A stretch of DNA of 62,632 nt, filler included, from Basidioascus undulatus (lineage: Eukaryota): NCBI GenBank assembly GCA_000826855.1. It is 9 parts of 9 records of this genome, joined end to end, with 100 filler letters (N's around TTAATTAATTAA, not from the genome) between each part and the next. Parts side by side here need not be neighbours in the genome. Positions count along the whole stretch, not along the records: positions 1 to 6,900 come from JTLS01001660.1; 8 more parts are not named here. The stretch is one strand, 5' to 3'. The notes beneath the pieces are model-generated. The model was not told the origin of the DNA, did not search any database, and was given only the letters and a program-made list of their open reading frames with translations. This document shows positions 3,833 through 58,208 of this stretch, piece by piece. A program made the translations under genes and the position numbers. The number at the start of each line of letters is the position of its first letter. The first letter of the stretch is position 1.

Positions 3833-5349
3833 TCACACCTCCGACCGTACGCCCGATCCGCCCTTCCGCTCTCCAGCGACCCTCAAGACCCACAGCGCAG
3901 TGTCGCGCAGAGTCTCCTCCGGTGTATGGTACCTCAGTCCCAGCACCTCCTTGCTCGCCCTATTGTCAAGCTTGTAGTCCGACGGGTTCACGAACCCCTT
4001 CGGAGCCTTGGGCAGCTTGTCCGCGAGCGGCCCGGGCAGTTCTTGGGCGAGGATCCGGACGTAGTCGGTCGGACGCAAGTCGTGCCCGCCTGCATGGGTG
4101 TGTGAATTGTTTTCCATGTTGGGGCTAATCTGACGGGCGAGGTAACGCACCAGTACGAAACGACGTCCGTTGGCTGCTTCGTTTTCCACTGCAAAAAGGG
4201 TGGAAGGTTGCAACATGCGGGGTCCACGAACATCTGTGAGGGTGTACCATAGAATTGTGTCGGGATGTGGGCGAACACAGGGCTGGGCAGCAAAACAACA
4301 CGTTTAAAGGGACCGGTGTCTCGGGCTGCACAGTGATGTTGAACGCGGGGTTCAGCAGCACCTCGGAGATGTCTGCCATAGCAAAGCCTGTGAGTAAATT
4401 GCCCATATCTGCCCCCCAACCTGAGAATTTCGAAGACCCATAACGTACATCGGTTTGACTGCGGCATGGGAAGGTCCATAGACCAGGACTGTTCATGCCA
4501 GGGGGATACTAAGTAAGTGTGACTATGTTAGAAGGAATTTGTTTTTCAAACAACTAAATCAACCTACCCGTTTGCAGAGTAATAACTGCGAACGAAGGCT
4601 TCTCCTTCTCCACAAACTCCCAAGCCGCTCTCTCGGCAAGAGTTTTCGCGGTCCCTGCGGCGGCATGTTATGAGCCAAATAGCAGTTTTTAAATTGTTTC
4701 TAAGGAGACGTACCGTATACCCACAAGGGGTGGGCATCTCCCGCTGCGAACTCGTACGTCAAAGGGTTCCCACCGTTCTCGTCGTAGACCTGCCCCGCCT
4801 GCGACGGCTTGGCCCAGTCGCCCGCTCCGCTGATTCTGAAAAGAATAAAGACTCAACTTTGGATTAGTACATTGCGGCCATGGGACTACTTGACTCACGA
4901 AAGACACACAAACTTCTTAAGCCCTGGCGCCTTCGCGGCAGCCCGGAGGGCATTGCGCATGCCCCCCAAGGCCGGGATGAGGTATAGTTCTCGTTGTCGA
5001 CGCGCTTTCCGGCCGCCTAAAAAGAGACATTCGGACCCATTAGAATAATTTCATGGGACACAGCTCGCGTCGATTCACTTCAGTCCCGATGATGGCCGGG
5101 AGTGGAGACGCCGTATGCAGAAGTAATCGACGTCCTTGGCAGCTTCGTCGAACGCGCCATCGGCAGCCATGTCGGGCACGATGACGAGTTCCACTTGTGA
5201 AGTGAATCGGAAATGAGGGACTCCCTTTGGTCTGCCTTGGACTGCGAGCGCACCGTGCCGCGCACGGCGTAGCCAGCTTTAAGGAAGGTGAGCGCGACCT
5301 CGGAAGCGATGAAGCCGTTTACGCCTGTGATGGTTTTACATTGATTCAT
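3833..5349 (-). pseudogene. NAD(P)-dependent epimerase/aldehyde reductase (Gre2/Ari1-like extended SDR), frameshifted
   Basis: ITGVNGFIASEVALTFLKAGYAVRGTVRS (Rossmann motif), TAKTLAERAAWEFVEKEKPSF, MFVD..AVENEAANGRRF and DNRASKEVLGLRYHTPEETLRDT. The motifs sit in frames that GT-AG introns do not reconcile, e.g. around 5200 and 4190-4230. Confidence 0.75.
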
Positions 5350-5489
5350 TCTTCAAGACACTGTAAATTACTAGTAATCTTCTGTGCAGAGTAGCGTCAG
5401 TGCGGTCCGAGCAATCACTTTCCTGTACGGTACTCCAAGAGTGTATGCCATCCGCTATCGCAGACATATTGTCTGGACTGCTCTCCGAT

Positions 5490-5582
5490 TACCAAAGATT
5501 GTGCGTTCGAGTCGCACCGTGGTCGTTTGCGTTGCAAACTATTTAGGCCGCGTGGCCTAATGGCTAAGGCGTTGGTCTTCGG
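5490..5582 (+). tRNA. Circularly permuted tRNA-Arg(TCG): 3' half 5490-5525, 20-nt spacer 5526-5545, 5' half 5546-5582
   Basis: 5' half is GGCCGCG-TG-GCCT-AATGGCTA-AGGC-G-TTGGT-CT-TCG-G, followed by TTTTTT. Upstream 3' half is T-ACCAA-AGATT-GTGCG-TTCGAGT-CGCAC-CGTGGTC-G. Acceptor stem (7 bp incl. 2 GU), D stem, anticodon stem (TTGGT/ACCAA) and T stem all pair. Confidence 0.88.
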
Positions 5583-5588
5583 TTTTTT
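5583..5588 (+). terminator. RNA polymerase III oligo-T terminator of the permuted tRNA
   Basis: T6 run immediately after position 37 of the 5' half. Confidence 0.7.
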
Positions 5589-6783
5589 GCTTTTATTTTG
5601 CAGAATACATATTTATTTTGCTCCTGGGAGGTGTGGGAGACGTTCGGAAAGTCGAGGAGGCAAGATAGAGGCAGGCGAGGAGGAGGAGGTGAGGGCGAGG
5701 GTGCTGGGGGGGTTGGACGAGGCGAACGAAGGCAAGACACAAGAAGACAACGCGTGTCAAGCGCGACCCAAAACGCTCAGGGCAGCCGCGTCAAGGTCCG
5801 CCCGGGTCTCCTCGGTCACAGTCGCAGTGGCAGTCTGGCAAGTTCTTCGCCTGCATTGGCTTTCGTACTACAAAAAAAGCGAGCGGGTTTGTTCAAAATT
5901 ACTTTATTTCTGCTTCAACATGGCGCAAGTGTGCGGACGTTGTACAAGCGTCGATGTGAAAACCGTGACTCTTCGCAACAACCTGGGCGCAGCCGGCTCC
6001 TTTCCCCCTCGTTTCCCAACGTTTCCCTTTGCCTTTGTAGCAAACAATGGAATTTGATGGGATAATGCTTTGATTAATTCAGCCGGCAGAATTCAAGCGC
6101 GAAAATGGCTTGCCATCGTCCCTTCAGACTGTCCGGCGTCCGCTCTAACCAGACTCCTGGAAAGACGCAATTCCAGCGGGCACAGAAAACGGAAACCCGA
6201 AATATCTGCAAGGCTCCAAAAGAGATTGAGTGCGTTCATGCCCTAGTTTCCCAAGCAAGCACATAGCCACAGACCATGCTCTTGGCCACTGGGACGCCGA
6301 CGCCGACGCCGCCCTGGTTGAAGCTCCCTGTACAGCTTCCCACCCTCGATGATGCTTAACACCTTCAAATAGTGCCCACACTAGAACCCAAAGCCCATGA
6401 ACTGAAAGGATCGCCAGTTCAAAAGATCTCAATGGTACTCCTTCTCAGCCGCGCTCAGTGTTCCATAGCATAGCCCCTCGCCACAAGTGTGCTTCCACAC
6501 ATATGGGACAGAAATTTTGGAGCAGGAGTAATCATTCCTAATGCTCTTTCTTCTCCTGCTTGCTCCGCACTGGGTGTGCTGCCGAGTAGGACGTTACGTG
6601 CCCGAGTGACCCGGATTTGTCTATTCCATGTGTTGCGGCGTTTCCCGTTCCTCTACTCGTTTGTCCTTCCACTGTGAAGATTGTGGACCTTACACGAAGA
6701 AGCTACAATGGTTGCGGATAAGCACGGCAGCCCTCGCTTTCAAGTTGTTCAGGTCAGGATGTAAACTGAAAGAAGAGTTCAGC

Positions 6784-6855
6784 TCCTTGTTGGTGTAGTG
6801 GCTAACATCGGGTGTTCTCACCGCCCAGCCCCGGGTTCAATTCCCGGACGGGGAA
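6784..6855 (+). tRNA. tRNA-Glu(CTC), intronless
   Basis: TCCTTGT..ACGGGGA acceptor stem; anticodon arm GGGTG-TTCTCAC-CGCCC; T arm CCGGG-TTCAATT-CCCGG; TTTT downstream. Confidence 0.93.
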
Positions 6856-6900
6856 CTATATTTTGCTCGTTTTGCCCATGCTCCAGGCCATGATGACTCT

Positions 6901-7000
6901 NNNNNNNNNNNNNNNNNNNNNNNNNNNNNNNNNNNNNNNNNNNNTTAATTAATTAANNNNNNNNNNNNNNNNNNNNNNNNNNNNNNNNNNNNNNNNNNNN
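6901..7000. other. Artificial contig spacer
   Basis: N44-TTAATTAATTAA-N44 (stop codons in all six frames). Confidence 0.98.
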
Positions 7001-13896: not shown

Positions 13897-13996
13897 NNNN
13901 NNNNNNNNNNNNNNNNNNNNNNNNNNNNNNNNNNNNNNNNTTAATTAATTAANNNNNNNNNNNNNNNNNNNNNNNNNNNNNNNNNNNNNNNNNNNN
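13897..13996. other. Artificial contig spacer
   Basis: N44-TTAATTAATTAA-N44. Confidence 0.98.
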
Positions 13997-20888: not shown

Positions 20889-20988
20889 NNNNNNNNNNNN
20901 NNNNNNNNNNNNNNNNNNNNNNNNNNNNNNNNTTAATTAATTAANNNNNNNNNNNNNNNNNNNNNNNNNNNNNNNNNNNNNNNNNNNN
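20889..20988. other. Artificial contig spacer
   Basis: N44-TTAATTAATTAA-N44. Confidence 0.98.
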
Positions 20989-24921: not shown

Positions 24922-26683
24922 ATGATTTCCGCTGCGCGCCCCTTGAGCGCGAGTTGCCGGCTTCAGCTTGGTAGGTCCCGCTCAGGCTCGTGCGTTGCTG
25001 ATAAGAGGAAGGCACTGATGACCAGTCTCATCCATCAGTCTCTCCTTCTGTGCAAAGATGCGCCGCGCGGAGCTTTACCACGGCGCGAGCGGGCCACGCT
25101 GCCGGGCGGAGGGCGGCGCAGACGATGGGAGCGGCCGTTGCAGCGGGTGGTGTGGCTTGGGCGGTGTATGCGACGACCGTGAGTCTGTCATTCATGGTCT
25201 GTTGGTTGTGATGGAGGGTCCTGATCAGCATTGGCTACTGCAGCTGCCGGAGAGCTTAGGCTCTATAGCATGCGATCAGAGCAGCGGCGAGACGGTACCT
25301 CTTCCCAATCATCCTTGTCTGAACTGTTGTCATGCTCATTTGGTCTTACCATCTTTCAGGCTAGCTCGCCGTCCTTTACCTCCCGCATTTCCTCCCTCTT
25401 CTCCGGCTCCTCCTCCCCGAAACCCCCTGCTCCCGTCGCAGCAACGCCGAACGCCCCGATCCGCGACCAGATGTCCACGTACATCAAGGACTTGCAGCAG
25501 CGCATCGTGGGCGCGCTGGAAGAGGTCGATGGGCAGAAGTTTAAGCAGGACGTGTGGACCCGCAAGGAGGGCGGCGAGGGCATTTCGTGTGTCCTCCAAG
25601 GTGGGAATGTGATCGAGAAGGCCGGCGTGGGTGTGTCGATCGTTCACGGCAAGCGTGAGTGTCTTCAGTCTTGATTCCAAACATCCAGAGAGACATCTAA
25701 TTGAAAAGCAATTCACAGTCCCTCCTGCGGGCATCAAGCAGATGCGCGCGAACCACAAGGACATCCCGTGGGACCCAGCCTCGCAGGACCACCTGCCCTT
25801 CACCGCCGCCGGCATCTCGCTCATCATCCACCCGCACAACCCCTTCGCACCGACCGTGCACGCCAACTACCGCTATTTCGAGCTGTACGCGGCGGACGCG
25901 ATCCAGGGCGTGTCGCCGCCGATCGCGAGCTGGTTCGGCGGCGGGTCGGACCTCACGCCGTCGTACCTGATCGAGGAGGACGCGGTGCACTTCCACCGCA
26001 CGGTCAAGGCCGCGTGCGACGCGCACGATAAGTCGTTCTACCCGCGCTTCAAGAAGTGGGCCGACAAGTACTTCTTTATCTCCCACCGCGGCGAGGCGCG
26101 CGGCATCGGCGGCGTCTTCTTCGATGACCTCTCCGCTGGCGAGGCCGGCAAGTCGACCGAGGAGCTCTTCGCGTTTGTCAAGGACGCTGGAGACTCGTTC
26201 GTTCAGTCCTACGTTCCGCTGCTCGCGGCGCGTAAGGACACGCCGTTCACGGAGGAGCAGAAGCGCTGGCAGCAGCTCCGTCGGGTGCGCTTGCTTGATG
26301 CCTTGTCTCCTCGGGTTCCGCTGCTGACGGGGATCTTCATCTACTCTGCAGGGACGCTACGTCGAGTTCAACCTGGTCGTACGTCCTGACCACTCTATTC
26401 TTTTTCTGATGTCTGCTCACTTTTGGCCAATCACAGCACGACCGTGGCACTCGTTTCGGGCTGTGCGTCGAAGACCTCCGCCTCTTCTACTCGCTCCCCC
26501 GCTGACTGTTGATTCTTTTCCTCTACTTTCCGCAGCCTCACCCCCGGCGCCCGTATCGAATCGATCCTGATGAGCCTGCCGACGACGGCGCGGTGGGAGT
26601 ACATGAACGAGATGGGCGCGAACGCAGCGACGGAGGAGGGCAAGCTGGTCGAGGTGCTGCGCAACCCTCGCGAATGGGCTTGA
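24922..26683 (+). CDS. HEM13: Coproporphyrinogen III oxidase (oxygen-dependent)
   Basis: [98 protein letters not shown] and NPREWA*. Confidence 0.96.
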
Positions 26684-27873: not shown

Positions 27874-27973
27874 NNNNNNNNNNNNNNNNNNNNNNNNNNN
27901 NNNNNNNNNNNNNNNNNTTAATTAATTAANNNNNNNNNNNNNNNNNNNNNNNNNNNNNNNNNNNNNNNNNNNN
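27874..27973. other. Artificial contig spacer
   Basis: N44-TTAATTAATTAA-N44. Confidence 0.98.
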
Positions 27974-30900
27974 CGGCGACGGGCTCGGCGGGGGCGGGGA
28001 GGAGGAGGAGGAGGAGCGCGCGCGCCGCGGGCAGGGCGGGCTCACGGGCGCGGGCAGGGGCGTCGTAGAGTGCATTTGGAGGGCTTGGGCAGCGGTGGTG
28101 GGGAGGGTGGAGTGAGGAGAGGGTTGCGGTAGAGAGGCCAGCCAGACTTTCTTGCTTGTATGGGGCCGATGCTTTCTTGTTTCTGCTTCTTGCGTTTCTT
28201 TTTCTTGCTCCTTATTTTCTTCGGCGCACGCTTTTGACCAGTCTTGTATTGCTTAAGTATCTTATGCCCCCGACGTGCACATCGTTGCCGCCGGTTATTA
28301 TTCTTTCTGCGTACCACTTGCTGGCGTTGTTGTCTTCAGCGCGCTTCTCGCTGTCGCGGAAAGGCCTTCCACTTGGACCTCAGTGCCATGTTGCCCTGAA
28401 CTGACTGCTCGACGCCTGATCGCTAATCTTCAACACGCTCTCAAGATGTGCATAGGATGCTTCATGACATGAACTAGACTGCTGTAAAGTTTCGTTAGCG
28501 GTGCGCCGTTCGACGGCAACTGAATCGATTTCGAGTCTCACGAGCCGTCGCGGATTACTGGAGCAGCCGTCTAGCAAGTCGCGTGTCATACTGATAAATA
28601 GGATGTAAAAGAGGGAAGGGGTTCGACTGGCGTAAGATTGGCATCGTGCTGACCGACGTCGACTGTTCCATTCTTCGCTCTCTTGAAGTGGTCGCGAACT
28701 GTGACTCTGGAACGCTGAGACAATTGAAGCCAGTTTTGACCTCAGCTTCCACCGTTCAGTTGCGCAGATCGAGAAGAGCAGCCTCACCGTGGTCCGGCCT
28801 TCAGCGATGATATTGAATGCAGACCGGAAGCAGTACTGCCACAAAAGCCTATCCGCGCTAGTGCACATTTTGCGGCTCTTGAAGTCAACCTACAGAGGTG
28901 TAAAGTCACGGATTCTATGGGCGTGCGCAAAACAGTAGCTACAATCTGAAATGAGCGAGGAAGGAGCAGAACGTTGCGGAAAGACTGACCTTCACCACGC
29001 AGCTGAGCTCTGAGCGGGAACTCCAATTTAAGGACGTATTGCAAGTCCTTGTATAAGAGTTGAAGGTCGCCTTTCTCTGTCAAGAAGATTTGATAACGAA
29101 TCTGCAGGGCGTCCCATAAGGCTCTTGGACACACGCATCTTTCCTGGCTCAATTGCTCACGCACCTGAGGTCGCTCAGCAGCCCAAGCTCCGGGTAATAA
29201 ATGGCACAGGGCCACTCCGCGTTGATGGAAATAGTACGAGCCACTGTTTAAGCCGACTTGCAAACGGCACACGGCTTTCCGCTTGCCCAAGCTCGTACTC
29301 AGTGCGCAAATCAGACAAGTCGCCCGAGAATCGTACCACCGTTTAAGCCGACGTGCAAACTGCACATAGCTTTCTGAGCACAACTTTATCAGAGCAGATC
29401 TATCAATAATTCATCTGGGAAGGTTGGTTCCCAACCAATGCCGCCAGTCTCGCATTCACATCTCACATGGAGCCCAGTTTCGCCGCTACGTCGCTGTCCC
29501 ACTCTCCGTCCCCAGCAGCTCGAGACGTCGCGAAGTCGGACCACACATTCAACTCTCAACTGTCTTTGAGGAAGGGTGATTACTCGGAGAGGGCAATCTC
29601 GAGTCCATCAATGAGGAGGGGTCTAAGCCCAGTCCGCACAACGGCGGAGTGGGTGCGAGCGAGGGAGAGGCCGCAGTCGGAGGAGTTCGACGTTCGATGG
29701 TTCCGGATCCGCCGGAGTCGAAGTAGTAGAGGGGATTTGACTCATAGTCGAGTAGACGCTTGGGCTGCCAGAGGGTTTGGGAACACAAGGGCATGAGACT
29801 GACCCGCGACGGTCCATGTGAGCGGAGGAGCTGACATCCAGGCCATGAAGCGATCGATCTCATCCAAAAAATTGCCCTCTCGGTACCCATAGGAGACACT
29901 TGGCATTTGATATCGCCGCCCCTGAAGTTGTGGGCTCTGTTGCGAAGGATATAGGCGTTGACACTGTGGATTTGGTGAGTCGGGGAGTCATCTATTCTTC
30001 GATCACAATAAGATGGGAGCGCACGCACACAGGAAACCCGAAGTCCGCAAACTCTTTGGTGAGGCGTTCCAGCGAAACGGAAGCCGGAATGTTGGCGAGG
30101 AAGGTCGAGCCCTAGGTCACGTTGATTGAATCGTCAAATAAGCCGTAGATGACCGAGAACGAGGACATGCTGCTGTAATGTAAACGGGTGATGGACAGGG
30201 TTGGATGGGGCTCTGAGAGGCCATGGTGGTGGTCGAGAGCAGGCCGGACGGATGGATCGCCCGAACTTGTTGGGGTTTGGAGTGCTGACACTAAACAATA
30301 GGCCGTCCCTTGCACTGGATTTTTGATGTGATCTATTGTTGTGAAGGATTGATTGCTCCGATATTTTTGGTATAGAAAAGATAGTAATACTACGCATCCA
30401 AAGCCGTTTTCCAACAGTTCTCCCAGCGTACAGGACTGACTTGTGATACAGGATGATGGGGCCCACTGCACCTAGTCATGCAGTTCCAGTCTTCTCTCCT
30501 CGTCCCTAGGGCTAATCTTCCTCAGGTACAAACGCTGCTACAGATTTCCAAAGCGGTGCGTTCATCGGCAAACACACGAAGTTCTGTCCGAGTGTCTCGA
30601 ACAGTTGGGAGTTGCCCCTTGATCGGTTTGGAAAGCCACATGCAATATTACGTAGAAAATAAGCTTGTAACTTGGAACTGCTGTGAATCCTGTACGATTG
30701 TCGCATGATGCGGTCTGAGCTGAAAGATCCCGCAGCATCCTGTTCGTCGCTTGGTGACTCCCTGGACGTGGTCACGATATTTGACTCTGGAACACAGATT
30801 CCATTGAACAATTCGCTGGAGCTAGTAGTAGGGGTTATCTGAGTGGCCACCACGGCTGATCTAGCACTCGGTCGCAGCCACGCATCTGCGTGTTCGTTGG

Positions 30901-34850: not shown

Positions 34851-34950
34851 NNNNNNNNNNNNNNNNNNNNNNNNNNNNNNNNNNNNNNNNNNNNTTAATT
34901 AATTAANNNNNNNNNNNNNNNNNNNNNNNNNNNNNNNNNNNNNNNNNNNN
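34851..34950. other. Artificial contig spacer
   Basis: N44-TTAATTAATTAA-N44. Confidence 0.98.
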
Positions 34951-41818: not shown

Positions 41819-41918
41819 NNNNNNNNNNNNNNNNNNNNNNNNNNNNNNNNNNNNNNNNNNNNTTAATTAATTAANNNNNNNNNNNNNNNNNNNNNNNNNN
41901 NNNNNNNNNNNNNNNNNN
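41819..41918. other. Artificial contig spacer
   Basis: N44-TTAATTAATTAA-N44. Confidence 0.98.
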
Positions 41919-48729: not shown

Positions 48730-48829
48730 NNNNNNNNNNNNNNNNNNNNNNNNNNNNNNNNNNNNNNNNNNNNTTAATTAATTAANNNNNNNNNNNNNNN
48801 NNNNNNNNNNNNNNNNNNNNNNNNNNNNN
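48730..48829. other. Artificial contig spacer
   Basis: N44-TTAATTAATTAA-N44. Confidence 0.98.
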
Positions 48830-49857: not shown

Positions 49858-49949
49858 GACCAGATGGCCGAGTGGTTAAGGCGTGAGACTCGAATTAGCT
49901 CGACATCTCATGGGCTCTGCCCGCGTAGGTTCAAATCCTGCTCTGGTCG
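49858..49949 (+). tRNA. tRNA-Ser(CGA) with a 10-nt intron at 37/38 (49895-49904)
   Basis: GACCAGA/TCTGGTC acceptor; TGAGA-CT-CGA-A-[ttagctcgac]-A-TCTCA; long variable arm GGGCTCTGCCC; GTAGG-TTCAAAT-CCTGC; G73; TTTTT downstream. Confidence 0.95.
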
Positions 49950-50420
49950 CAATTTTTGCACTTGTCTCCTTCTCTCCTGAACACCTTTTTCTTGCCCAAG
50001 AATGCCCTACCCCTTTACATCCTTTTTTTTTTTGAAGGCACGGTGATCGTCGAAACACCCCCTTTCAAGTGGTCCGGAAGCCGACTACTGCTCTGGTCCG
50101 GGCTTGGTCCGGCGCTCGCGGCCGTCTTCTCTCGTCCAAGGCTCTGCGTCTTCTCTCAGCTCCTCCTGCGTCTTATCGTTCCCGCCCGACTCGTCCTCCG
50201 GCGCCTCTGTATTGTGTCTCACCCTTGTTGCCTCTGTCGGGGTCTTCCACCTTTTTACAAAGGCCACGCTAAGCTAACGCCGCCAAAGGTTCCACACCGC
50301 GTGAGCTCTCCTTTCCCTCTTTCCGGCGGCGGTCGCGTGCGGCGGACCGGATCAATCTCTTTGCTCACACGGGCATGCTTATTTCCAGATCTTCTGTCTC
50401 TCCGGATACACCTCCCTGTA

Positions 50421-51666
50421 ATGTCTTCCTCAACGTCGTCCCCCGCCGCCGCTCCCAATGGCTCCACCGCGCCTCTCACGCTGCGCATCGGATCGCGCAA
50501 GTCCGTGCTCGCGATGATCCAGGCGAACCTCGTGCGCTCGTGGCTGCTCGAGCACCACCCGCACGCGGAGATCACGATCGTGGGGATGTCAACCGCGGGC
50601 GACGCGGATAAGGTCTCGGCGCTGTACCTCATGGGCGGCTCGGACAAGGGCCTCTGGACGAAGGAGCTCGAGAGCGCGCTCATCGACGGCCAGGTCGACA
50701 TGATCGTCCACTCGCTCAAAGACGTCCAGACCACCCTGCCCGACGGGTGTACGCTCGGCGCGATTCCACTGCGCGAGGACCCGCGTGACGCGTTCGTCGT
50801 GAAGAAGGGGCTGGACTACAAGCGGCTAGAGGACTTGCCGGAGGGGAGCGTAGTCGGGACGAGCAGCGTGCGGCGAGTCGCCCAGCTGAGGAGGAAGTTC
50901 CCTAAGTTGGTCTTTGCCGACATTGTGCGTTTCTTTTCCCATCTCTGGCTGGGCAGGATGACGGTCTGACACCCTCTCCCTGACGGGTCTTTTCTCCGAA
51001 GCGAGGAAACCTGTGCGTCTTCCTGCGACCTCCTCCCCCTCCCTTACATCGTCCTGATGCCATCTTCCATGCCCTAGCGACACCCGCCTGTCCAAGCTCG
51101 ACTCCCCCACCGGCCCCTACACGGCGCTCATCCTCGCGTCCGCAGGGCTCAAGCGCTTCTCCCCCGCGCACGCCTCGCGCATCACCACGCCTCTGTCCTC
51201 CCCCACGCTCCTGCACGCCGTTGGCCAAGGCGCCCTCGGTATCGAGATCCGGACGAACGACGCGCGCGTCTCGTCCGCGCTCGCGCCGCTGCGGCACCGC
51301 GAGTCCGAGTTGGCAACGGCCGCGGAGCGCGCGCTCCTGCGCTTCCTCGAGGGCGGGTGCTCCGTCCCCGTCGGCGTCGAAACGACCGTGACGCTCCAAG
51401 AGGGTGGGCGCGCGACGCTCGACTTCCGCGCGAGCTTGACGAGCCTGTCGGGCGCGCAGCACGTCGAGCGCGCCGTGCGGGTCGAGATTGCGAGCGAGGA
51501 GGAGGCCGCCGAGGCGGGCGTCCAGCTCGGGAGGGAGCTTGTCGAGGCGGGTGGGTGGGAGATCTTGAAGGAGGTGGATGAGATGAAGAGCCGGGAGGAG
51601 AAGGAGAAGCGCGAGAAGCGCGAGGGCGGGTGGAGAGAGATGCCCGTCGAGGAGGCCGCTCAGTAG
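50421..51666 (+). CDS. HEM3: Porphobilinogen deaminase (hydroxymethylbilane synthase)
   Basis: [50 protein letters not shown], spliced [23 protein letters not shown] and [18 protein letters not shown]. Confidence 0.96.
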
Positions 51667-55681: not shown

Positions 55682-55781
55682 NNNNNNNNNNNNNNNNNNN
55701 NNNNNNNNNNNNNNNNNNNNNNNNNTTAATTAATTAANNNNNNNNNNNNNNNNNNNNNNNNNNNNNNNNNNNNNNNNNNNN
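55682..55781. other. Artificial contig spacer
   Basis: N44-TTAATTAATTAA-N44. Confidence 0.98.
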
Positions 55782-57466: not shown

Positions 57467-58136
57467 TGCGGATGGGGAGATGGTGATGGTGAGCAAAGAC
57501 GGACCACCGGCGAAGCAGAGAGAACAAGCCGGATTGTCAGCACAACAACGTCAGCACTCTCATCGGCTTGAACGATGAGCGGCAAGTTGCGAAGACACTC
57601 GCAAGCTCAGGCTTCCCTGTTCGCGGTGCGTAAACCCGAGTACACAAATGTCGGCGGAGTTGTAGCATGCGATAACGGTAAATTCAACGGGTGCTGCTGG
57701 GTGCGGCCTGTTTCCATCGGCCTTGGTCTTGCGCAATCAGCGAACTCGGCGGTGCTCCACCAGCATGTTGGCTCAGCAGGTGATGGCAGCTGGTATTCAC
57801 TGTCCAGAAGCAGGTAGAATGCACTCGACTGAGAAGCACGCCGGAGAGGAACCCGTGAGGCAGGAGACGTGGCAGGCGCACGCACTCTCTTCGCGCGCCG
57901 ACGAAGACCTCTGAAGGCTACACCTTTCTGTGTCGCTCCCAAGGACAAGCTTTTTGCTGTAGTAGATGTGGGATAAAAGAGGGTCCTTGCATGGCGCTCA
58001 TACATGCAGTAGGGCGCTACTCGTCATCACTTACTCTGTGGATAATCCTTATGATTTCCCAGCACCTGGTGGCACAGCTGTTTGGTCTTCCCGCATTACA
58101 TAAGATTAAAAAAAAGAATACGGCTTGCATGGATAT

Positions 58137-58208
58137 GTCGTGTTGGCGCAATGGTAGCGCGTCGGTTTCCGATACCGGAGGTTGTGGGTTCGAGTCCCAT
58201 GCACGACT
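58137..58208 (+). tRNA. tRNA-Arg(CCG), intronless
   Basis: GTCGTGT/GCACGAC acceptor; GCGC-AATGGTA-GCGC D arm; TCGGT-TTCCGAT-ACCGG; GTGGG-TTCGAGT-CCCAT; oligo-T follows. Confidence 0.92.

Follow-up and report, generated by a model that had tools for sequence, protein, structure and literature searches.

The locus lies on the plus strand of the stretch of DNA analysed here, 62,632 nt in length, which we refer to as the window. It carries the two halves of a tRNA-Arg(UCG) gene with the 3' half first (Table 1). The earlier note had described a 3' half placed 20 nt upstream of a 5' half with a run of six T's (T6) behind it, and the sequence agrees with that description base for base. The coordinates of both halves confirm that the break falls between tRNA positions 37 and 38, and T6 was found directly behind the 5' half, as the note had said. 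Joined by script in the conventional order, the halves give a 73-nt sequence that ARAGORN calls as tRNA-Arg(tcg), the identity that had been predicted, with every stem paired. At the level of DNA, this is a genuine permuted tRNA locus.

Table 1. Coordinates of the features at the permuted locus (positions within the window).
Feature	Position	Strand	Remarks
tRNA-Arg(UCG) 3' half, positions 38-73	5490-5525	+	3' anticodon-stem strand, variable loop, T arm with B box, 3' acceptor strand, discriminator G
Intervening spacer, 20 nt	5526-5545	+	between 3' half and 5' half; longest T run T3
tRNA-Arg(UCG) 5' half, positions 1-37	5546-5582	+	5' acceptor strand, D arm with A box, 5' anticodon-stem strand, anticodon UCG, G37
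T6 run, putative Pol III terminator	5583-5588	+	directly after G37
Putative leader, similar to a tRNA intron's 3' end	5480-5489	+	CCGA at 5485-5488
Weak TATA-like candidate ACATATT	5464-5470	+	-26 to -20 relative to 3' half
Possible, heavily decayed second copy of the unit	5599-5745	+	offset 137-143 nt; six colinear seeds

In the ARAGORN structure of the joined tRNA, the acceptor stem has 7 bp (two of them G-U), the D stem 4 bp, the anticodon stem 5 bp, and the T stem 5 bp. None of these 21 stem pairs is mispaired, which counts for function and against a pseudogene. Twelve of the base pairs span both halves, and all twelve are complementary. The eukaryotic consensus elements U8, G18G19, R15:Y48, U33, and T54-T55-C56 can be read from the joined sequence. 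A free RNA fold of 5470-5600 also formed all four stems, in the permuted order; its z-score was only -1.5, which we judged unremarkable for a tRNA-sized sequence. In this fold, a 6-bp spacer hairpin (5525-5539) is followed by six unpaired bases before G1.

In its native order the locus was called neither by ARAGORN nor by Rfam at the gathering score, and the expectation that standard tRNA finders would miss it was thus borne out. An Rfam search of 5300-5800 in E-value mode returned no tRNA match, not even a partial one, for either half. The behavior of these programs was also visible at a conventional gene of the window, tRNA-Glu(CUC) at 6784-6856 (+). ARAGORN called this gene, and Rfam at the gathering score did not when searching the whole window; it scores 44.9 bits (gathering score 29) when Rfam searches only 6740-6900. 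The fast filters of Rfam can therefore drop real tRNAs in long queries.

We tiled the window with 1,498 circularised segments of 220 nt and submitted these to ARAGORN. There were 13 matches, four of which wrap round the origin. All four of these wrap-around (permuted-type) calls overlap the locus at 5490-5588, and the other 1,494 segments are without a permuted-type call. By this search there is no second permuted tRNA in the 62.6 kb window, and the locus being a single case counts against function. Nor did blastn-short reveal either half a second time anywhere in the 62.6 kb. A scan of the window for T arms recovered three conventional tRNAs, the permuted locus, and one orphan motif at 57554-57577 on the minus strand, which has no matching acceptor strand. 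The earlier note had seen no other 5' half upstream and no other T arm downstream; with blastn-short and the T-arm scan, this statement now extends to the whole 62.6 kb window.

The layout could be an artefact of assembly or sequencing, in which two tRNA fragments were joined into a chimera. The assembly is a draft, and the two DNA runs with which we compared it are both flagged as possible sources of the assembly, so that the samples are not independent. Nevertheless, we consider an artefact highly improbable. The runs come from two studies, and 98% of the sampled words of 4600-6600 are present in them. Across 5200-5697, the k-mer contigs of both runs have 0 letters that differ from the window, and there are no indels, joints, or loose ends inside the locus. 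The contigs are 5,700 nt long at a word depth of 16.5 and 13,450 nt long at a word depth of 54.1. In run X1 the locus has the same depth as the neighboring contig (16.5 versus 17), and in run X2 the two depths are of the same order (54.1 versus 41.3), as for single-copy DNA. A third run, X3, yielded no sequence over this stretch. The reads had been proposed as a check against misassembly, and the k-mer contigs of both read sets cross 5200-5697 unbroken; because they run unbroken through the locus, an error of scaffolding or joining is very unlikely.

The contigs of both runs, which we take to be products of a 31-mer graph, end only in the GAGGAGG-type repeat at 5677-5697. Since they break at this repeat but not at the halves, the read sets should contain no identical copy of either half elsewhere. 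From the continuity of the 31-mer contigs over the 36-nt and 37-nt halves, we infer that the two read sets hold no identical parent gene, an argument that a copy differing by one central base in each half would escape.

Pfam searches with the open frames of the window identified THOC7, an oxysterol-binding protein, YL1, coproporphyrinogen oxidase, and porphobilinogen deaminase, in split genes, as in a eukaryote. The THOC7-like gene, at about 1.8-2.8 kb, and the tRNA-Glu(CUC) gene lie on either side of the permuted locus. The coproporphyrinogen oxidase exon has 6,332 relatives in the database used. Among the best 120 of these 6,332, nearly all that are named are fungi, which agrees with the fungal host given in the earlier note. 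The best named matches are to three Wallemia species (52-64% identity), an unnamed match has the highest identity overall (64%), and Botryobasidium, Dacryopinax, and other Agaricomycetes come next. No relative among the best 120 of 6,332 exceeds about 67% identity, and no Pucciniomycotina are found among the same 120. The placement of the host in the Pucciniomycotina is thus not supported by this single marker, which points instead to Wallemia-type basidiomycetes and then to the Agaricomycetes. A 469-aa ORF used as a protein query had no match. Within the fungi, the host is probably an early branch of the basidiomycetes that has no close sequenced relative in the database used.

Conventional relatives of the joined tRNA were sought in a metagenome collection. 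The exact 37-nt 5' half had 0 matches there, and a degenerate pattern reaching from the D arm to the anticodon had at least 132 matches in at least 124 loci. Among the 132 matches listed, 120 lie inside conventional intronless tRNA-Arg(tcg) genes as called by ARAGORN, seven are cut by contig or locus ends, and five are disrupted. Neither a permuted layout nor a close relative of the locus is present among these 132.

The joined tRNA is identical at 66 of 73 positions to a conventional Arg-UCG gene from a metagenome contig (L052), the best match among 53 distinct sequences. The differences are two T-stem pairs that changed on both sides, the discriminator, one position in the D loop, and position 38; both acceptor G-U pairs are common to the two sequences. 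Position 38 is U in the joined tRNA versus A in 53 of 53 distinct conventional Arg-UCG sequences, which counts against function. It is the sole departure from the columns conserved at 95% or more, and U38 also occurs in the conventional tRNA-Arg(CCG) of the window (58137-58208). Judged by its sequence, the joined tRNA is a bona fide and undecayed member of the Arg-UCG family, the sampled relatives of which are intronless.

Several of the conventional genes are arranged in tandem. One 7,078-nt contig carries four conventional tRNA-Arg(UCG) copies (L036-L039), about 1.2 or 2.3 kb apart, and a further locus (L104) holds two conventional Arg-UCG genes separated by a 39-nt spacer. Arrays of this sort are the kind of raw material that the duplication model, discussed below, needs. 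In two other genes (L088 and L108, on different contigs), which are conventional otherwise, the T loop is interrupted, and the two insertions share a similar stretch of about 30 nt. Either a non-canonical intron of the T loop or some small mobile insertion could account for this.

These genes bear on the question of whether the permuted locus is dead. A conventional tRNA-Arg(UCG) gene may have been duplicated or rearranged and its outer halves lost by deletion, complex replication, or retro-insertion, leaving a young pseudogene that is not transcribed or cannot be processed; CGA would then be decoded by another arginine tRNA, as happens in yeasts without a UCG tRNA. This explanation is a serious one, although on the whole we think it somewhat doubtful. 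It accords with the U at position 38, where all 53 conventional relatives have A, with the existence of tandem Arg-UCG arrays with short spacers such as the one with 39 nt, and with the existence of disrupted Arg-UCG genes (five among the 132 metagenome matches listed). It also accords with codon usage: CGA makes up only three of the 63 Arg codons in 725 Pfam-matched codons, so that the demand for tRNA-Arg(UCG) would be low and the tRNA may be dispensable. However, a relic calls for two or more precise events that struck one and the same tRNA position, recent enough for 73 nt to be without a disruptive change. A young relic should also have an identical parent, yet the k-mer contigs are unbroken at the halves.

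The accepted model for the origin of permuted genes is that an intron-bearing gene was duplicated in tandem and that the outer halves were then lost, according to the available portion of PMC3978253. This is the most likely origin of the present locus as well. We compared each half with the flank in which its lost counterpart would lie. For the 5' half against the 150 nt upstream, the fraction of shuffles scoring at least as well was 0.98, and for the 3' half against the 150 nt downstream it was 0.25. When the unit 5460-5598 was aligned locally and globally to the next 147 nt or the previous 145 nt, the fractions were between 0.54 and 0.99. Given that there is no significant trace of the outer halves within 62.6 kb, a recent simple tandem duplication is excluded. 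With the outer halves gone and both remaining halves intact, a relic would need several precise recent events; the loss of the outer halves without a significant trace is thus a point against the locus being dead. A dead locus would still be a rare snapshot of the proposed route to permutation through duplication and loss.

Between 5460-5598 and 5599-5745 there are six colinear exact matches (seeds) of 5-7 nt, with offsets of 137-143 nt; the core of the T loop is among them, as is part of the anticodon stem, each where it would be expected. The count of seeds in this band was reached in 0.0005 of 2,000 shuffles and in 0.036 of 605 real adjacent segment pairs, but the statistic was chosen after the seeds had been seen, and the result is therefore a hint only. 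If it is real, the contrast between a decayed neighboring copy and the flawless one would provide direct evidence that the permuted unit is under selection.

Two further possibilities were considered. The flanking direct repeat GCAGA..CATATT (5460-5470 and 5600-5613) was rejected as a target-site duplication because it is not significant. Retro-insertion of a circularised primary transcript was weighed because a U3 tail and a 17-nt leader can be read in the spacer, but it is not supported: the sense copy has T's and not A's behind it, and T6 would be left unexplained. The T-rich stretch behind T6 also contains an exact 10-nt direct repeat, TTTATTTTGC, at 5592-5601 and 5612-5621 (20 nt apart), and the 7-mer ACATATT recurs at 5607-5613.

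The plus strand of the 62,632-nt window has only seven runs of six or more T's, or about 1.1e-4 per position. T6 at the locus begins exactly after G37, that is, at the 37/38 break, which counts for function. The next two bases are GC, and GC likewise comes after the T runs of the three conventional tRNA genes in the window. Behind the 3' half, the spacer offers T3 only, versus T4 or T5 within 8 nt in all three conventional tRNA genes of the window; read-through into the 5' half is therefore possible, which also counts for function.

One tRNA of the window served as a local reference for introns. At 49858-49950 (+), ARAGORN run without introns gives a tRNA-Phe(gaa) of 93 nt, and run with introns allowed it gives a tRNA-Ser(cga) with a 10-nt intron at 37/38. 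We follow the second reading because the long variable arm fits it, and this tRNA-Ser(CGA) is the window's sole intron-bearing tRNA. With introns allowed, ARAGORN also calls a tRNA-Ile(gat) at 29965-30505 (+) whose intron would be 444 nt long; the call is probably spurious, since neither Rfam nor ARAGORN at default settings supports it.

In the MFE fold, the CCGA of the leader (5485-5488) pairs with U34-G37. Alternatively, G5487 of the leader (position -3) can form an A-I pair with C32, and a bulge of 3 nt then remains at the 3' cut site. Pairs of the C32:G-3 type are the anticodon-intron (A-I) pairs of eukaryotes. The leader also ends much as the 10-nt intron of the tRNA-Ser(CGA) does, with CGA plus one pyrimidine in both cases, and this speaks for function. 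By our estimate, a 9-nt leader would be complementary to U34-G37 in this way by chance with a probability of about 0.07. The term anticodon-intron pair is that of PMC4090602, in the part of the text available. Neither this intron-like leader nor the position of T6 exactly after G37 is explained if the locus is a relic.

A strict bulge-helix-bulge (BHB) is not formed; the eukaryotic A-I pair and the 3-nt bulge at the 3' site are all that is present. The canonical register gives C32:G(-3) alone, one of the four central-helix pairs, which counts against function and for a relic. An alternative 4-bp helix (CCGA/UCGG) leaves a 2x2 loop, and the trailer consists of the U run only, which has no pairing partner.

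The promoter signals are also unfavorable. The B box (5505-5515, core intact) is upstream of the A box (5553-5563), and this reversed order counts against function. At each of the three conventional tRNA genes in the window, a 10-mer of 80-100% A/T lies between -31 and -13; the fractions of random 35-mers that match these three A/T elements are 16%, 0.9%, and 0.9%. Upstream of the 3' half, the richest 10-mer has 70% A/T, a value reached by 39% of random 35-mers, which again counts against function. The A/T richness of the ACATATT at -26 to -20 is at background and weaker than at the three conventional genes. Both the reversed boxes and the want of a strong upstream A/T element would suit a relic. 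The portion of PMC3978253 available calls a reversed order of A and B boxes unsuitable for TFIIIC and argues that Cyanidioschyzon merolae bypasses TFIIIC via an upstream TATA element.

The boxes might serve without a full tRNA being made. The A box could drive a short transcript that runs from the spacer to T6, giving a genome-encoded 5' tRNA half, or the two boxes could act as a TFIIIC site only. In favor of a 5'-half RNA, the A box lies at the normal distance from a start site within the spacer, from which transcription to T6 would yield an RNA of about 50 nt, and the intact B box core is consistent with partial activity of either kind. However, the best 10-mer upstream of the 5' half is only 50% A/T, and partial activity leaves unexplained why the 3' half is perfectly complementary in the 12 pairs that cross between the halves. 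We consider partial activity of this sort unlikely.

The layout is of a known kind in a new lineage, real as DNA and putative as a gene. Our tentative preference, to which we give slightly less than an even chance, is that the locus is a genuine chromosomal type II (37/38) permuted tRNA-Arg(UCG) gene in a basidiomycete-like fungus and is probably still working. A working gene would explain the intact 73 nt, the absence of the outer halves and of an identical parent, and the position of T6 at the break. This reading is weakened because a convincing promoter and, in the literature searched, a fungal precedent are both absent.

If the gene works, RNA polymerase III would start upstream of 5490, read through the 3' half, the spacer with its T3 only, and the 5' half, and stop in T6. 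The two halves would fold into a cloverleaf, as they do in the free fold. RNase P and tRNase Z would excise the 20-nt spacer at G1 and G73, and CCA would be added. The fungal Sen endonuclease, using its ruler mechanism with help from C32:G-3, would treat the short leader and the U tail like the two ends of an intron that has been opened and cut them off, and tRNA ligase would join G37 to U38. Depending on the order of these steps, the intermediate would be a circle, as in algae, or a nicked tRNA in two pieces. In budding yeast, end-processing precedes splicing, and on that order a two-piece intermediate would be expected in this fungus. In the available parts of the respective texts, the Sen complex is said to locate its sites by their distance from the tRNA body rather than through a local motif (PMC4090602), and the junction in algae is said to be processed first, which gives the circle (PMC3978253). 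The absence of a BHB and of a strong A/T element near -30 argues against an alga-like pathway here. We propose, with some reserve and as rather less than an even prospect, that the fungus makes tRNA-Arg(UCG) from a permuted gene without a BHB; the ordinary Sen complex would remove the leader and the Pol III U tail, which together amount to an "open intron," and the ligase would seal the anticodon loop, perhaps on a two-piece intermediate.

In 2014, 34 permuted tRNA genes were known from red and green algae, a nucleomorph, and one crenarchaeon, with no Arg(UCG) among them, and their intervening sequences were 1-74 nt long (5-64 nt in type II), as given in the part of Soma 2014 available (PMC3978253). 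Type II (37/38) genes are recorded there from C. merolae, Ostreococcus, Micromonas, and the Bigelowiella natans nucleomorph (Soma 2007; Maruyama 2010; via PMC3978253). The accessible text of a 2026 review still gives the eukaryotic exceptions as "certain unicellular algae" (PMC13578239), and that of the tRNAscan-SE 2.0 paper mentions permuted tRNAs for archaea alone (PMC8450103). Judged by titles and the openings of abstracts, none of the papers listed for the full-text literature reports a fungal permuted tRNA, which is a further point in favor of a relic.

The locus resembles the algal and nucleomorph type II genes in having the 3' half first on one strand, the break at 37/38, a short (20 nt) spacer free of terminators, and a T stretch right after the 5' half; in both cases, a consensus tRNA is rebuilt. 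In the length of its spacer, the type of junction, the T stretch downstream, and a spacer free of signals, the locus agrees with the 34 known permuted genes, which counts for function. It differs from them in its fungal host, the absence of a BHB, a trailer that is a U run, and a weak TATA-like element; in addition, it is known from DNA alone, and its anticodon UCG is outside the 34 genes listed. The tRNA-iMet and tRNA-Tyr genes of Thermofilum pendens (Chan, Cozen and Lowe 2011, in Table 1 of PMC3978253) are likewise permuted with a very short spacer; however, they are broken at 59/60, encode CCA, and have an archaeal promoter, and the archaeal endonuclease depends on a BHB, according to the portion of PMC3978253 available.

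Tandem conventional genes, which are the presumed evolutionary precursors of permuted genes in that same portion (PMC3978253), also present the 3' end of one copy, a short spacer (39 nt in the pair described above), and the 5' start of the next copy; in contrast, the fungal locus has neither the outer 5' half nor the outer 3' half. Fragmentary tRNA pseudogenes are like the locus in that the tRNA, read in linear order, is incomplete and escapes standard finders. At the locus, however, the halves are exactly complementary, there is one break point and no disruptive substitution, and a terminator flanks the unit.

Permuted tRNA genes have so far been tied to archaea and to small algal genomes with unusual, TFIIIC-poor transcription. 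If the fungal gene works, it would be the first outside the algae and archaea, and would mean that this layout can arise independently. It would also mean that the standard opisthokont machinery (Pol III, RNase P, tRNase Z, the Sen complex, and a Trl1-type ligase) can mature a back-to-front gene and, as no BHB is formed, that any eukaryote could tolerate permuted tRNA genes. Routine tRNA annotation could then under-count isoacceptors, and genome annotations may miss permuted genes. A working fungal case would be a genetically approachable setting in which to study how Pol III reads reversed internal promoter boxes.

Two further features of the window are recorded here. Sixteen runs of exactly 44 N occur as eight pairs, with 12 bases between the members of a pair, at 6901-7000, 13897-13996, 20889-20988, 27874-27973, 34851-34950, 41819-41918, 48730-48829, and 55682-55781. 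The pairs recur every 6,950-7,000 nt or so, none is near the locus, and they look like regular masking, not assembly gaps. The exons for coproporphyrinogen oxidase (25613-26389, +) and porphobilinogen deaminase (49929-50969, +) both belong to haem synthesis and lie about 24 kb apart in the window.
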